Source of the DNA: a virus
Taxonomy: Duplodnaviria; Heunggongvirae; Uroviricota; Caudoviricetes
IMG/VR virus record: IMGVR_UViG_2698536646_000013
Strand: one strand, 5' to 3'
Length of the DNA: 55,213 nt
The notes below the pieces were generated by a model. That model saw only the letters and a list, made by a program, of their open reading frames with translations. It was not told where the DNA came from and did not search any database. Both the position numbers and the translations under genes were made by a program. Positions 38,907 through 45,418 of the stretch are shown here, in pieces; position 1 is the stretch's first letter, and each line of letters starts with the position of its first letter.

Positions 38907-39505
38907 TACGCAAACTCCAGTAGTTGTGCGGCCACATTTTCAACTTCCTCCTGAGAGGAGAATTTACGGAACAGAATCCAGTTCCACAGCACATTCAGTA
39001 CAGATTTATAAACCTGCTGAAACTCGACTTCGTCCATATTCGCAAAAGCGATGGATTTTGCCCGACGCCCACGGCTACCGTCCGGATAAATATGCTCGGT
39101 GTAAAATCCGGCCTGAATGGTTACCCACTCGCGGAAAGCCTCAAACGACTTTAGCAACGCCGTATCCCGGGTTCTACGAGTCGCAACGGTGTTAAGGTAT
39201 TGCTCTGCGGCATCACTCAGGGCTGGCGTGTGTTCCCGACCAACTGATTCGCACAGGTAATCAACGAAACCAGACAGCAGTTCTCGTTCGCGAGGCGTGA
39301 TCGCCCCACCGACCGGAGTCCAGTAATCGAATCCCAGTTGCAGGAGTTTGAAAAAACGCTTGTGGAATGCGTAGTTACGCACACGCTTAAAGTCTGCGTG
39401 TATCCACTCACCTATTTTGATTTGATGCAGAAAATCGCAACTCTCCGGCGTCGCCGGGAGAAGTAAACCAGAAGAGGTTTGTTTGACCAGTTGTATATGC
39501 GCCAT
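38906..39505 (-). CDS. DUF1367-family phage protein
   Basis: 199 aa, MAHIQLVKQTSSGLLLPATPESCDFLHQIKIGEWIHADFK..., a common nin-region protein of lambdoid prophages. Confidence 0.75.
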   Translation of the reverse strand: MAHIQLVKQTSSGLLLPATPESCDFLHQIKIGEWIHADFKRVRNYAFHKRFFKLLQLGFDYWTPVGGAITPRERELLSGFVDYLCESVGREHTPALSDAAEQYLNTVATRRTRDTALLKSFEAFREWVTIQAGFYTEHIYPDGSRGRRAKSIAFANMDEVEFQQVYKSVLNVLWNWILFRKFSSQEEVENVAAQLLEFA

Positions 39506-39785
39506 TTCTCAATCTCTCGATGGCGCAGCGCAGCAGATGCCAGTTGTTCAGGCTGACGAATAAAGTATAAATAAACTGGCTATGGTGTAAAGCCCCACAT
39601 AGCATGAACAAACACTACATATCAAATAGCTGGTACAAGGATAGAAATACGACACTTATTATTAAAAACGATTAGATAAATTACATTTTAATGTTATGCA
39701 AAAGTTCTTTTTTATCATAACATTTCAATAAAAGCATTACAGATGCAATCATCCCGTCATCATCAATTATTTAAGGTGGTTAAAC

Positions 39786-39872
39786 ATGGAAAATAACAAG
39801 TTCGCACATCTCGCTCCTTTTTTATCCGTAATCCTTTTCGCTTGTTGTTTTATATGGGCATTATTTTTATAA
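39786..39872 (+). CDS. Candidate small hydrophobic peptide (28 aa)
   Basis: MENNKFAHLAPFLSVILFACCFIWALFL, strong RBS AAGGTGG 6 nt upstream, in an ~800-bp AT-rich non-coding island. Hand-translated, not in the ORF table. Confidence 0.35.
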   Translation: MENNKFAHLAPFLSVILFACCFIWALFL

Positions 39873-40263
39873 AGTAGCCACATGATAAGTTGCTGGAATC
39901 ATATTTCCCACTCAAGTCATTAACATTTGATAAGATATATCTAAAAGGACGCCTTTACATTATTTATGCGTATATAATTTATTTATATACACAGTAAAGG
40001 TATCCTGGGAAAATATTTATCGTTAAAAAATACATCATAAATAATTAAGCTGAAATTTCAGAACACAACTAATACACACAATAAGGTTCAGTAACAGTAA
40101 TCTATGTGGACTACATCGAGATTTTTTGATTAAACTTTAATAACTTATTCCTAACACACAGAATGCATAAACTAAAAGTAAAACAAATAGTTATACGAAA
40201 AACAACCATATTTATTCTATCTTCTCCTCTAATCAACATATCAATTATGTGTTTCATAACAGC

Positions 40264-40303
40264 TTGACATAACCCTCCAAAAGATGCATTTTTAATGCAT
40301 GTT
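40264..40303 (+). promoter_or_regulatory. Promoter with NsrR-type operator upstream of the yeaR-like gene
   Basis: -35 TTGACA at 40264-40269. AAGATGCATTT-T-TAATGCATGTT at 40281-40303 fits the 11-1-11 NsrR inverted repeat (AAGATGCATTT-N-AAATGCATCTT) at 20 of 22 positions. Confidence 0.5.
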
Positions 40304-40318
40304 TTGGAGGAGGTGGTT

Positions 40319-40657
40319 ATGACACACAAGAGAATTCCTAAAGATTGGGTAATCAAACGCTCAACTCCGTTCTTCACAAAAGAGAACGTACCTTCAGCGT
40401 TATTAACACATCATAATACAGCAGCAGGTGTTTTTGGGCAGTTGTGCGTAATGGAAGGCACTGTAACATATTATGGTTTTACTGATGAGAATGCTACTGA
40501 ACCGGAGATAAAAGTAGTCATTAATGCTGGCGCTTTTGCAACAAGCCCACCACAATACTGGCACCGTGTTGAACTAAGCGATGATGCTCAGTTTAATATT
40601 AACTTTTGGGTCGCTCCAGACTTTTCGGGCGAAAAAGTCTATAGCACCAAAAAATAG
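40319..40657 (+). CDS. YeaR-like protein (DUF1971, TehB-like cupin)
   Basis: 112 aa from MTHKRIPKDW, RBS GGAGGAGGTGG. RSTPFF...AAGVF...LCVMEGTVTYYGF..EP...AGAFA..PPQYWH...FNINFWVAP parallels K-12 YeaR. Confidence 0.85.
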   Translation: MTHKRIPKDWVIKRSTPFFTKENVPSALLTHHNTAAGVFGQLCVMEGTVTYYGFTDENATEPEIKVVINAGAFATSPPQYWHRVELSDDAQFNINFWVAPDFSGEKVYSTKK

Positions 40658-40686
40658 ATGATCATATTAAAAATGCTTTAACAGTC

Positions 40687-40723
40687 AGACCCGGCAGGGC
40701 TATCCCCGACGGGTCTCATTTTT
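40687..40723 (+). terminator. Rho-independent terminator after the yeaR-like gene
   Basis: Stem agacccg / cgggtct with an internal GC-rich loop, followed by CATTTTTG. Confidence 0.6.
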
Positions 40724-41277
40724 GTAAATATATTGGTTCTACATTGACAGGAGACTTCAACCATAAGAAGTAATCTGAATACTTGAGCAATAAATTTACT
40801 TAAGATTAATGAGCGCACCTTGCCGGACAAAGATAAACCAAGGTAACACCTTTTTTCTAGCCAGTATGTAATCAATCAGAAAGCCGCTCCATAAGAACAA
40901 CAGCAAGACAATAAATTGCCATTACAGCCGCAATAGCCAGCGCACATTTGAGAACCAGCACGACAACCCCCTGTATTAGACGCACACCAGTCCTGATAAA
41001 TATGAGGCTGTCTCGTCAGTGATTCAATACAACTATTGGGTATAGTTTCTGTGATTTTATTCTGTAGAAATGGAACACAACAACCAGTCACCACCAGCAC
41101 TTCCTTAAATGCTCTAAGTCAGAAACAAGCCAACATTTTAGTCCGCTTTGAGCGATCTGCAGACATTGCTAGCAGCCTTCTGTGTGAATTCTCAGGGAGC
41201 AGGTCGGCATAGCATCACGTTGAGGCTCTTACCCTACTTGTTCACACCAACCCTAACTCCACAGACTGATTCATAAA

Positions 41278-42279
41278 TTAGTAATCTGCGTGTTTCGCAC
41301 TTTTCAGAAATGCTTTCATATTTTCATTAGGTCGCTCAATTTCGAAGTTACTTCCATATAACTCTTGTAATTTTGGCCATAACTTACTTAATAACCCTCT
41401 CCTGCGATAAAATGGATGTATCCAAACGGTAGATAGGTACGGAGAATTTGCATTTGAATTGTTTATTGTGACCAGCCCAACTAAACATTGTCGATAACCA
41501 CTATTATCCATTGATTGTATTTCTTCGACGAATGGATACGCGATTACATCAGTCCAACCATGATCGGTTGTATCCCATTGCATTCCGTCATGACATTCCT
41601 TCGACTGATAGCGGCGTAAAGCTACACACGCGAGCTTTTGCCAATCTGGAGAATTAATTGTGATCTCTTCATCGTATGACGCGCCTATTGGAGCGGGTAT
41701 TGGTCTGATTAATCCAGCATGGCATTCATCATAGAACTTCATGTTTCCCTCAGAAACGTTGTGTACGTTGGGTTGCTCCATGTGTGCGCCATTCAAAAAT
41801 AGCTCTGATAGTAGTGTATCTACACTGTAATCTTTATTGATTATTGTCGGCTTAGAGTTTTTCTTATTAAGGCCGCGAGTAACGATTTTTTGATCAATGT
41901 TAACAACATGGAATAATCCGTCGGGGAGGCTAGCGAACCACGATGGGGCATCGGACCAGAATAGCATGCCTTTTGTACTTCTTAAGAGTTTAATTAAGTT
42001 AATACAAGCTTCTTCACTAGTCTTGCCGTTGATGCGAAGTATGTTAGGACTAAAGTAATATTCATCCATATCAGGGAATGCAGCTTCGCAAAACTCCTGT
42101 ACATAATTTAGCACCTGGATTCTACAGAGATCATCATAGCTGGTAATAACTAAGGGGGTATCTTCATTACTATTATGATTATCAATAATGCAATCTATAG
42201 CGAGACTTACTGCTTTGCGTATCACTTCAGTTGAATCTAACGACTCTAAAAATTTTGTCTTTCGTGTGCGAATATCCAT
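41278..42279 (-). CDS. Hypothetical protein, possible GNAT-like C-terminus (second gene of AT-rich cargo operon)
   Basis: 333 aa. C-terminal LVGLVTINN...VWIHPFYRRRGLLSKLW loosely resembles GNAT motif A. N-terminal 200 aa have no recognisable family. 15-bp gap to the upstream gene. Confidence 0.7.
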   Translation of the reverse strand: MDIRTRKTKFLESLDSTEVIRKAVSLAIDCIIDNHNSNEDTPLVITSYDDLCRIQVLNYVQEFCEAAFPDMDEYYFSPNILRINGKTSEEACINLIKLLRSTKGMLFWSDAPSWFASLPDGLFHVVNIDQKIVTRGLNKKNSKPTIINKDYSVDTLLSELFLNGAHMEQPNVHNVSEGNMKFYDECHAGLIRPIPAPIGASYDEEITINSPDWQKLACVALRRYQSKECHDGMQWDTTDHGWTDVIAYPFVEEIQSMDNSGYRQCLVGLVTINNSNANSPYLSTVWIHPFYRRRGLLSKLWPKLQELYGSNFEIERPNENMKAFLKSAKHADY

Positions 42280-42294
42280 GTATGACCTGCGCTA

Positions 42295-43317
42295 TTAAAA
42301 TTCATGAATGAACGGTTTGTCATCTGGTTGCAAAATGGTGGTTTTATTCGTTGCTACATTTAAACTGTTGTAGAGCATAATTGCCAGGTTCGATGCATTT
42401 TCAATCAGCGTTTCAAGATCCTGGTCTGTAATCACTACGAGGTTCCCTTCTTTATCCTTTCCACCACGATGCACTAAGTGATTTCGATTGAGGGTTGCCA
42501 ATTCAATAGCTTCTATCGGACAGTCTTTTTGTACTTTTATATCGAATGTAGCTTCATAGCGGTCGATTACCTTTTTAGTGCTATGCCAGCTTGCACTGAT
42601 CAAGTGTTCCTTGATTGACCTGATTAGCTCTCCCCTAATTTTCTCGATGGGTTCACCCTTGAAAGGCAACGCAGCAATATCTTTGCTTACTTTAAATTCA
42701 GTCTTACCTTTTTCTATACAATTGGCTATGTAGACATCATCTTTCTCTATAGAATTAATGAATAGCTCAACATAAAGCGTTTCCAAAGCTGTAATAACAT
42801 TCGTGTAGAGCAAACTAAGCAAGTGGTTTTTTTGCTGTTGTTCAGTTTTATCTTTTGCAAGTTTTTTTATTTTATCGATATTATCAATGAATTTTAAATA
42901 CGGATTACCGGAAGACGTTACAGCGTCGTAGATATCATCATCGTACCAATCATCTATATTATTTGAGTTTCCAGACCAGTCAAAACATTGTGTTTGTAAT
43001 TCATCTACTAATTCCTCAATATACTCAGATTTAACATATTGACCGAAGATGGATTGTAGTTCTTCGCTCGCATCATACGGCCCGCCATATATGTAAGCAT
43101 AGCCACCTTCTCTACTTTCATACGGACAAGCATTTGCCGGATCTTCAAAGTTTTCAAAGAACCAGTTTTTCATTACTTCGAGTTGATCTTTTTTGCTTAT
43201 GTATTTTAAAGATTTTAGTGGAACTTTCTTTCCATTAACCTCGAAAACAATTTTCACGATGTAACGCTCCCTTGTATCAATTGCGCAACTATTATACCAC
43301 AGCGAAATACAGGGCAT
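42295..43317 (-). CDS. Hypothetical protein with HEPN-type RNxxxH motif (first gene of AT-rich cargo operon)
   Basis: 340 aa from MPCISLWYN (ATG 43317, RBS AAGGAGG). C-terminal ...ELATLNRNHLVHRGG... contains R-N-x3-H. AT-rich relative to flanking phage genes. Confidence 0.7.
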   Translation of the reverse strand: MPCISLWYNSCAIDTRERYIVKIVFEVNGKKVPLKSLKYISKKDQLEVMKNWFFENFEDPANACPYESREGGYAYIYGGPYDASEELQSIFGQYVKSEYIEELVDELQTQCFDWSGNSNNIDDWYDDDIYDAVTSSGNPYLKFIDNIDKIKKLAKDKTEQQQKNHLLSLLYTNVITALETLYVELFINSIEKDDVYIANCIEKGKTEFKVSKDIAALPFKGEPIEKIRGELIRSIKEHLISASWHSTKKVIDRYEATFDIKVQKDCPIEAIELATLNRNHLVHRGGKDKEGNLVVITDQDLETLIENASNLAIMLYNSLNVATNKTTILQPDDKPFIHEF

Positions 43318-43455
43318 AACCTGCCTCCTTAAACTAACATACCATGAGCCAGCAATGTCCGCTATTGGCACAAAGCGGACAACCACGCTAGCTCTCCCCT
43401 GTGCCAGAAAAATGTCAATTTACATATGAACTAATGCTCTTTGATCTAGTAACGT

Positions 43456-43887
43456 CTATAAATACCGAAGATTTCCTTGATAAAATGCCAGTACACGTTT
43501 CATAACTTCACTCTTCCGGCACTCGCGACAGATTATGTTCTGACGCCTGTCATAGCGGCGTATTTCTCCGTCTGGTAATGACCAGATAAGGTCAGGATCA
43601 ACCACAACCGTTTTTTTCACCTTTGCCCTGGATAGTTTTTTGCGGGCGTTTTTCCAATCCTTACGAGCCTGTTCAGACGGGAATAACCCATAGCCAGAGT
43701 TGTATACATCGCCACTGGCAACCAACTCTCTGGCAAGAATGCTCATCAGATATCTTGTCGCACCTGTCTTGGCCTCCAGTTGCCTTAACGTCTCGCGCCC
43801 ACTCTGGCGTACCAACTCAACAACCTGCTCCTTAATTTTTTCACGCTCTTCCTGTGTAAAAACTTTTGCCATAAGCGCCTCCGGCAA
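43456..43887 (-). CDS. Hypothetical early-region protein
   Basis: 143 aa, basic, with a Cys-containing C-terminus (ICRECRKSEV). No family recognised. Confidence 0.6.
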   Translation of the reverse strand: MPEALMAKVFTQEEREKIKEQVVELVRQSGRETLRQLEAKTGATRYLMSILARELVASGDVYNSGYGLFPSEQARKDWKNARKKLSRAKVKKTVVVDPDLIWSLPDGEIRRYDRRQNIICRECRKSEVMKRVLAFYQGNLRYL

Positions 43888-44649
43888 TCACTTTTCCGAC
43901 ACAATACGACTGGAGGAATCGACAATCTGTCGGACAATATCCCGGTGCTTGTTCAGCTCCCGCAGCGCGGCGCAGACTCGCTCCCACTTCTGGACATGAT
44001 TTTTCGCCCGACGCAGTTCGCGGTTTGCCATATGCAGCGATGGTAAAACTAGGTCATCCGCTTGCGTTTCAGTAAACGATGGCAGCGACTGCACAATGTC
44101 CGCCACAGTTTCTGTTTTAATATCTTCCTGTGTTGCCGCTTCCTGTACTGGTAACGCAACACCGGCTGGCTGAGGAAAGGCTTTACCATCAGTTTCCGCT
44201 ACCGATGCAGCTTTCGGCTCTGCTGGTAAATTATCGCCCGGCATGCAGTAACGAAATTTACTGTTCTGGTTTACGCGAATCAGGCGTCCTTTGCTGATTG
44301 CCATTGCCAGCGTTGAAGCAACTTTGCGGGATGTTGTACCGAACAGCGTAGCCAGTTCATCCGCCGTTTGTGGTCCGCGTTGTTCAATCGTCGCGGTTAA
44401 ATCGCACTCTGAGATTTTCACTACAGTTGCCGTGGTGGTTTCTTCCGGCAGTTCTGCCTGCATTGGCTGTTCCTGCTGAACGTTGTTATCAGCCACACGC
44501 CAGGTGTACGCGCTTTTATCAACGAAACCAGCTTTTTTCAGTTCCCATAGTTCGTTCAGCACTTCTTCACGACTGATATCAAGTCGCGCAGCAAGTTCTA
44601 TGGATGTGGCTTTTCCCATTGCTTTCAGTGCGTCAAAAACAGTCTCCAT
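43888..44649 (-). CDS. Hypothetical DNA-binding protein (two winged-helix-like segments)
   Basis: Start placed at [13 protein letters not shown] (ATG 44649, RBS GGGAGG). Lies downstream of the DnaC-like gene. Confidence 0.65.
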
Positions 44650-44671
44650 AAAAATTTCCTCCCGGTAAAAA

Positions 44672-45418
44672 TTACTTCTCAATTCCTGGCTGGACGACAT
44701 TCGGACGCCAGCTCTCCCAGTTAAAATTCACCCATCGCCCGCCGTTCATGGTCATGCGATCCATAATCCGCTCGCCGAGCAATGTTTTCATGGCCTCATA
44801 GTTCAGGTTTGTCAGCATCCCCACGCTGCGCATCGACGCTGTCCGGCGATCAACAATCTGGTGCAGCACCACCTGCTCGTTTTTCGTCTCGCGCTGAATG
44901 CCAATTTCATCAAGAACCAGCAGATCCACTTCGCATAGTTCCCGCAAAAATTTTTCGCCTGACTGCCCATCGTCATAGCTGGCGTGCAGGGCACTCATAA
45001 CATCAGCCACGGTAACCACAATCACTGTCTGACCGTCTTTCAGCAGGCGATTCCCGATAGCTGCCGCTAAGTGGTTCTTCCCGGTACCAGGTTTTCCGCT
45101 GAACGCAAAATTTGTACACCCGGTCATCAGTTCATCAGCGATGGATTTCGCCTGACTCAACGCGTATCGCTGCGCTTCGTTCTGCACCTGGTAATTCGAA
45201 AACGAGCATTTGCGGTGCAATGGCTGGATGCCAGAGCGATTCAGAATTTTTTCCACCCGCAACTGACGATTCTGACGGTTGATCTCCTCACAACGTTTCT
45301 GGCCTTCGGAAAGTTGCCACTCGCGCCACTCCGCTACCGTCTTGAATGGCGCGGTTACATGTGACGGGGCCAGTCTGCGGATACGTTCAAGAACGTCGCC
45401 TGTCGCAATATTTTTCAT
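44672..45418 (-). CDS. ydaV: DnaC-like replication protein / helicase loader (YdaV-like)
   Basis: 248 aa, Walker [16 protein letters not shown] and Walker B LLVLDEIG, IstB/DnaC family. Confidence 0.9.

Follow-up and report, generated by a model that had tools for sequence, protein, structure and literature searches.

A predicted NsrR-repressed DUF1971 gene carried as cargo by Rac-type prophages of Escherichia coli

The closest described relative of the gene considered here is STM1808 of Salmonella, which encodes a putative cytoplasmic protein, belongs to the NsrR regulon, and has a role in virulence (PMC7527575, citing Karlinsey 2012). NsrR sites had been predicted earlier in front of tehB homologues in all enterobacteria and in Photobacterium profundum (Rodionov 2005). 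NsrR control of STM1808-type genes is thus already known, from the prediction of 2005 and from a report on Salmonella of 2012 (PMID 22831173). A second relative, yeaR-yoaG of Escherichia coli K-12, also has a DUF1971 product and an NsrR operator in its promoter, and a related structure from Aliivibrio fischeri has been deposited as the structural-genomics entry 'tellurite resistance protein B' (PDB 3DL3). Among phage morons under host regulators, stx1 of Stx1 phages is controlled by Fur. The present analysis concerns a DUF1971 gene on a 55,213-nucleotide (nt) stretch of viral DNA (IMG/VR record IMGVR_UViG_2698536646_000013, Caudoviricetes), and this whole stretch is called the window below. 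Together with the DNA on either side, the gene forms a unit that, with a probability of roughly 80%, is a moron in a Rac-family lambdoid prophage, consisting of a promoter, an NsrR operator, a ribosome-binding site (RBS), an STM1808-type gene, and a terminator, with repression relieved by nitric oxide (NO). The new part is only the prophage location in E. coli. In the literature searched, no report of an NsrR-controlled prophage gene was found, and nothing was found on the E. coli Rac-type prophage copy with its intact operator.

The unit and the island that contains it comprise the following features (positions in the window):

40264-40269, plus strand: -35 hexamer TTGACA, read from the sequence, 11 nt upstream of the operator
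40274-40310, no strand: extended palindrome with 17-nt arms CCTCCAAAAGATGCATT / AATGCATGTTTTGGAGG, found by inverted-repeat search; encloses the operator and part of the RBS
40281-40303, no strand: NsrR-type operator, 11-1-11 inverted repeat AAGATGCATTT-T-TAATGCATGTT, assigned by consensus match, matrix score, and conservation
40287-40292, plus strand: candidate -10 hexamer CATTTT at 17-nt spacing, operator positions 7-12, assigned by position
40291-40296, plus strand: TTTAAT at 21-nt spacing, the alternative to CATTTT as -10 hexamer
40306-40313, plus strand: Shine-Dalgarno sequence GGAGGAGG, read from the sequence, ending 5 nt before the ATG
40319-40657, plus strand: coding sequence of a 112-amino-acid (aa) single-domain DUF1971 protein of the STM1808 type, assigned by Pfam, homologues, and structure match
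40687-40723, plus strand: probable intrinsic terminator with the stem AGACCCG...CGGGTCT followed by CATTTTT, assigned by inverted repeat and fold
39506-43400, no strand: cargo island of a Rac-type prophage, low in guanine plus cytosine (GC), assigned by composition profile, the annotation of an identical record, and variable content in other Rac alleles

The operator has the full sequence AAGATGCATTTTTAATGCATGTT, its two arms are complementary at 9 of 11 positions, and it deviates from the NsrR consensus AAGATGCATTTNAAATGCATCTT (arms AAGATGCATTT-N-AAATGCATCTT) by two mismatches in 22 positions. It is the only match with up to three mismatches in the 55-kb window, and none of 100 shuffles matched. 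For scoring, a position-weight matrix was derived from E. coli CFT073, whose 11-1-11 NsrR sites are listed in Table 4 of PMC5320621; 26 of the 27 sites were taken, with one duplicated sequence used once. With this matrix the operator reaches 27.9 bits and the next best position in the window 13.5 bits. Among the sites that built the matrix, ytfE (31.4 bits) is the sole one above the window operator, and hcp, yeaR, and hmp score 25.2, 23.5, and 20.6 bits, respectively. The match to the NsrR consensus is far beyond chance. The operator ends 15 nt before the ATG; at the NsrR targets of K-12 this distance is 26 nt for ytfE and hmp, 14 nt for hcp, and 66 nt for yeaR.

A first-pass annotation of this region, made by reading the letters only, had proposed a -35 hexamer TTGACA of the gene's own, an 11-1-11 inverted repeat directly before the RBS that fits the NsrR consensus, and a separate terminator. 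All of these elements are present, and the palindrome is longer than had been claimed. In the probable terminator, a hairpin (40687-40716) precedes TCATTTTT, which ends at 40723; the region folds at -19.4 kcal/mol (z=-2.1), although a simple terminator scan made no call. The same annotation had described a prophage-borne gene on the plus strand within a minus-strand phage region, which agrees with the annotated gene directions and with the Rac-type gene set at ttcA described below. It had also made its reading depend on conservation of the repeat in homologous prophages. This reading holds on that point because all 36 IMG/VR prophage copies have the site in the same place, with scores of 18.1-28.9 bits. 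The 11 E. coli, Shigella, and phage copies aligned with that of the window likewise all have an NsrR-like site.

Conservation of the operator extends to chromosomal orthologues. A scan with one genome per species led to 80 orthologous loci, and a site of at least 18 bits was found in 52 of 79 species loci. These comprise all Enterobacteriaceae except one Leclercia, whose site is shifted by a 1-nt gap and has a low score, plus two Photobacterium. The Enterobacteriaceae sampled were Kluyvera, Leclercia, Pseudescherichia, Silvania, Buttiauxella, Pantoea, Enterobacter, Citrobacter, Salmonella, Klebsiella, Raoultella, Yokenella, and Phytobacter; the enterobacterial sites end 15-27 nt before the ATG and most score 24-30 bits. 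Most Vibrionaceae loci, including that of A. fischeri ES114 (L069), have no upstream NsrR site, and the distribution of sites over Vibrionaceae and enterobacteria agrees with the prediction of Rodionov 2005. When the loci are anchored on the site, conservation amounts to 1.66 bits per position inside the 23 base pairs (bp) of the operator versus 0.5 in the flanks, and the operator is conserved across Enterobacteriaceae orthologues despite saturated synonymous sites. Hexamers resembling the -35 element are similarly placed in orthologues, with TTTACA and TTGACG located 11 nt and TTGCCT located 12 nt from the operator. A promoter scan called TTTACA-17-TATTTT in Kluyvera and TTGCCT-18-TATATT in Citrobacter, with both -10 hexamers at operator positions 7-12.

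DNA similarity of the window to the chromosomal orthologues begins at 40278-40281, at the first base of the operator, and stops at the stop codon. Since this similarity spans the operator through the stop codon, operator and gene are a unit inherited from an ancestral chromosomal arrangement. No recent donor species was found for this unit, the best DNA identity being 72-75% with saturated synonymous sites. Plasmid copies of the E. coli allele were not found in PLSDB, where the matches were distant chromosomal-type homologues only.

The start codon at 40319 agrees with RefSeq protein WP_000149055.1, and the product matches the full Pfam DUF1971 profile (E=2.3e-26). Salmonella, Kluyvera, Klebsiella, and Citrobacter have 113-aa DUF1971 proteins to which it is 79-82% identical, and its identity to DUF1971 proteins of Vibrionaceae is 73-80%. 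The closest solved structure is PDB 3DL3 (E=3.5e-59), and because this protein is 78% identical over 111 residues, the fold of the 112-aa protein is effectively known. The YeaR structure 3BB6 is a far weaker match (E=1.6e-24), and identity to YeaR of K-12 is only 41%. Two histidines, H32 and H82, show no variation among 16 STM1808-type sequences and are also found in YeaR; in STM1808, zinc binding and resistance to NO reportedly depend on them. Purifying selection acts on the open reading frame (ORF), with a ratio of non-synonymous to synonymous substitution rates (dN/dS) of 0.04-0.27 within E. coli; in comparison with other genera, dN is about 0.11-0.15 and synonymous sites are saturated. Among phage proteins, the product has a PHROG family of its own (phrog_34268) of unknown function.

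On these similarities the 112-aa protein is assigned to the STM1808-type DUF1971 family rather than to YeaR or TehB. An orthologue of YeaR is ruled out by the 41% identity and by the position of 3BB6 far behind 3DL3. A TehB methyltransferase was rejected likewise, as alignment with the TehB profile is confined to its DUF1971 part, the score for NCBIfam TehB is 49 versus a cut-off of 303, and the protein has a length of 112 aa. RefSeq records label this same protein either as 'DUF1971 domain-containing protein' or as 'TehB family protein', and the latter misleads, as the protein lacks the methyltransferase domain.

The window copy thus resembles STM1808 of Salmonella as a single-domain DUF1971 protein of 112-113 aa with 79% identity, with conserved H32 and H82 and with an NsrR 11-1-11 operator directly before the RBS. 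The Salmonella orthologue is found in the gene order nhaB-dsbB-gene, which we take, from the gene numbering of strain LT2, to be the position of STM1808. In contrast to this chromosomal gene downstream of nhaB-dsbB, the window copy is located in the cargo island of a Rac prophage, and its operator is 15 nt instead of 27 nt away from the ATG. It also differs from the orthologue of A. fischeri ES114 by having an upstream NsrR site, which is absent there. Its operator layout is nearer to the Kluyvera/Leclercia type, but without the Fur-box-like site of that type.

This Fur-box-like site, GATAATGAGATTTATTATC, agrees with the consensus at 13-17 of 19 positions and is located upstream of the -35 hexamer, with its end about 64-66 nt ahead of the start codon (L004-L025). 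It has a fixed position in orthologues of Kluyvera, Leclercia, Pantoea, Pseudescherichia, and Buttiauxella; neither the E. coli prophage copy nor the group of Salmonella, Citrobacter, and Klebsiella has it. The best Fur-box match of the window copy is at background level (11 of 19 positions). This pattern suggests that Fur and NsrR may jointly control the gene in some genera.

The DUF1971 gene resides in a Rac-family prophage adjoining ttcA, according to an annotated record that is identical to the window at this locus; positions 39500-41300 are 100% identical to E. coli O78 strain 3. The annotated genes of this prophage include intR, xisR, recET, kilR, sieB, ydaS-V, and trkG together with lysis and tail genes, and the surrounding phage genes on the minus strand are opposed to the DUF1971 gene on the plus strand. 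In the composition profile, the island has a GC content of 26-43% versus about 50% in its flanks. It is bounded by DUF977/DUF1627 replication-side genes on one side and by a DUF1367-YbcO-Q module on the other. The gene is carried by 458 of 5426 complete E. coli genomes, and some flanking DNA was matched in 2195 genomes. All contexts that were opened are of the Rac type, including that in the deposited phage genome vB_EcoS-666R9. DUF1367 is a constant neighbour in all of them, and the neighbour on the other side is variable, being a pair of genes for 333-aa and 363-aa proteins (as in the window), Hok/Gef with KilA-N, or QueH. The gene has the location of a moron, as it lies between modules, in DNA of distinct composition, and is dispensable among related prophages. 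Like Fur-controlled stx1, it probably forms a self-contained unit of promoter, operator, gene, and terminator in a prophage with predicted control by a host stress regulator independent of the lytic programme. Unlike in stx1 morons, the regulator would be NsrR and the signal NO, and the cargo is a putative stress-tolerance protein and not a toxin.

The operator varies within E. coli. In an alignment of the window with 11 further E. coli, Shigella, and phage copies (L003, L083-L092), differences cluster at -45 to -10 from the ATG (36 nt, window 40274-40309). Between the window and L086, five of seven differences fall into this stretch (Fisher p=5e-5), and p ranges from 5e-6 to 3e-3 over all five allele comparisons. 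Substitutions are concentrated 7- to 36-fold in the stretch, at a density exceeding that of synonymous divergence in the gene. In total, nine operator haplotypes with 18.1-28.9 bits were found, including the following alleles:

allele A (window): AAGATGCATTTTTAATGCATGTT, 27.9 bits
allele B: AACACGCATTTATAATGCATGTT, 20.9 bits
allele C: AAGGTGCATTTATAATGCATGTT, 26.8 bits
allele D: AAGGAGCATTCATAATGCATGTT, 18.1 bits
allele E: AAGGTGCATTTATAATACATGTT, 25.7 bits

The right half-site is near-constant, with at most one base different in all nine haplotypes. Allele A is the strongest common allele and yet a minority: it was found in 16 of 464 genomes at an identity of at least 99% over 131 nt and in 5 of 36 IMG/VR copies. 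In its left half and at the centre position it looks nearest to the outgroup state AAGATGTATTTTAAATGCAT; in the other alleles, an A in the centre gives rise to TATAAT or CATAAT. Copies with allele C are without the terminator, their divergence beginning directly past the stop codon. Diversifying selection on promoter and operator in E. coli is a tentative and rather unlikely explanation of this variation. If it applied, E. coli lineages would have retuned how tightly this prophage gene is coupled to NO. Alternatively, the outer stem of the palindrome around the operator may have a function of its own.

The most likely mode of control, judged from the arrangement of the sites, would be a simple occlusion of the promoter by NsrR that is relieved by NO. 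In a lysogen, the iron-sulfur form of the host repressor, [Fe-S]-NsrR, would bind the operator, which covers the candidate -10 hexamer and the probable transcription start, and transcription would be blocked. NO that is made by a host or arises from nitrate or nitrite respiration would then nitrosylate the cluster of NsrR, and the repressor would be released. The DUF1971 gene would subsequently be expressed independently of the lytic programme of the phage. By analogy with STM1808 of Salmonella, its product would be small, zinc-binding, and cupin-like and would help cells to grow better under nitrosative stress.

Three points weigh against NO-relieved repression of the gene from its own promoter. 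First, no canonical -10 hexamer is present in the window copy; CATTTT matches the consensus at three of six positions, and a consensus scan called no plus-strand promoter here. Second, most E. coli carriers have a drifted left half-site, with scores of 20.9 bits for allele B and 18.1 bits for allele D, and the strength of repression therefore probably differs between strains. Third, an AT-rich region of 813 nt upstream of the gene could be silenced by H-NS.

The palindrome offers an alternative in which nucleic-acid structure is its main purpose, instead of or besides binding of a repressor. In transcripts starting upstream of 40274, a 17-bp hairpin would hide the RBS, and only transcripts from the gene's own promoter would be translated. 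The arms at 40274-40290 and 40294-40310 are 94% complementary and reach 7 nt past the 23-bp operator on each side, the right arm taking in GGAGG of the RBS. As RNA, the palindrome has a folding energy of -23.7 kcal/mol (z=-5.4). In alleles A and B, 16-17 of 18 symmetric pairs are retained, giving a palindrome of 37-39 bp, and the two alleles are distinguished by a compensatory change from C:G to A:T at -41/-13. In Citrobacter, 10 of 10 outer pairs are kept via compensatory changes, and Raoultella and Yokenella keep 8-9 of 10. Over all loci, outer pairing amounts to 4.27 of 10 pairs compared with 3.41±0.23 (maximum 4.21) in 2000 partner permutations. Extensions of 7-10 nt beyond the 23-bp site were noted around the operators of L026, L029, L032, L049, L060, and L073. 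An extension as a general property of NsrR sites was ruled out, as the operators of ytfE, hmp, hcp, and yeaR in K-12 have none. Against a structural role, alleles C, D, and E have weak outer arms with 3-4 of 7 pairs, the Kluyvera/Leclercia group does not keep these arms, and it is the NsrR motif and not the outer stem that is conserved across genera. Furthermore, a -10 hexamer inside the operator would leave the gene's own mRNA without the left arm, the outer arms of Citrobacter exclude the RBS, and template-switch mutation in quasi-palindromes could give the same pattern without function. Such a structural role as the main purpose of the palindrome is considered improbable. Candidates for the origin of the outer pairing are template-switch mutation, an RNA hairpin on read-through transcripts, and selection on regulation.

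The points raised against NO-relieved repression also bear on whether the unit is a regulatory relic, that is, whether the gene is silent in lysogens due to silencing from the AT-rich upstream DNA, or is constitutive, with NsrR control no longer being meaningful. A loss of this kind would account for the missing canonical -10 hexamer in the window, and it is compatible with a GC content of 26-30% upstream, with the substitution hotspot in the operator region among E. coli alleles, and with the weaker left half-site of most alleles and their gain of TATAAT or CATAAT at the operator centre. It is hard to reconcile with the near-consensus operator kept in the window allele and the near-constant right half-site, with scores of at least 18 bits in all prophage alleles, which is inside the range of sites bound in chromatin immunoprecipitation, and with an intact ORF under purifying selection in E. 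coli. A relic is regarded as quite improbable. Nitrate control of the gene as a genuine paralogue of yeaR, activated by NarL and repressed by NsrR as at chromosomal yeaR-yoaG, is considered extremely improbable: the Pfam family is shared and both promoters have an NsrR site, but the protein is far closer to STM1808-type proteins and to 3DL3 than to YeaR and 3BB6, a terminator and not yoaG is located downstream of the stop codon, NarL 7-2-7 sites with up to three mismatches were found nowhere in 39500-40320 and no FNR site was found near the promoter, and the operator is 15 nt instead of 66 nt away from the ATG. Of the first-pass description as a YeaR/DUF1971-like protein, the DUF1971 assignment stands and an orthology to YeaR is rejected, and the comparison with the chromosomal yeaR promoter that it had proposed yields the NsrR site as a common element, together with differences in spacing, NarL site, and yoaG.

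Several further observations concern the island around the NsrR-controlled unit proposed here. The 813 nt at 39506-40318, between DUF1367 and the DUF1971 gene, have a GC content of 26-30% and are without an annotated gene, except that one phage record annotates a hypothetical ORF of 43 aa in this region; the AT-rich DNA may be a target of H-NS. Searches with Rfam families in 39400-41400 gave nothing but a meaningless miRNA match (E=0.13). Downstream of the unit, positions 40860-41167 share about 92% identity with unannotated DNA of the lambdoid phages Tritos, Evi, and mEp460_ev081 and contain two terminator-like hairpins on the minus strand (40937-40918 and 40901-40883). The two following genes on the minus strand encode a 333-aa protein with a weakly GNAT-like C-terminus (41278-42279) and a 363-aa protein with a weak match to a HEPN/RES N-terminal domain (42295-43386), both belonging to PHROG families of unknown function. 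PADLOC defence-system models gave no match for the DUF1971 protein or for these two neighbours. Because Hok/Gef with KilA-N or QueH replace this pair in other Rac alleles, the island around these genes looks like a variable cargo or defence hotspot. Beside the island, IS2 is inserted at about 43523-44751 of the window, a position calculated from the offset to the identical record L001. A different strain (L092) has an IS3-family element 65 nt upstream of the DUF1971 start codon, with the -35 hexamer and the operator intact.

Taken as a whole, the case is a well-supported but fairly ordinary one of phage cargo under a host stress regulator and involves no new mechanism. Via Rac-type prophages, about 8% of complete E. 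coli genomes have gained a counterpart of a Salmonella NsrR-regulon gene that is linked to nitrosative-stress resistance and virulence, and which E. coli K-12 does not have. The alleles of the operator form a ready set for testing how operator strength tunes the response to NO. The unit is a natural example of phage cargo that arrives with a site for a host regulator already attached, and since the operator arrived with the cargo, the NsrR regulon of an E. coli strain would depend on the prophages it carries.

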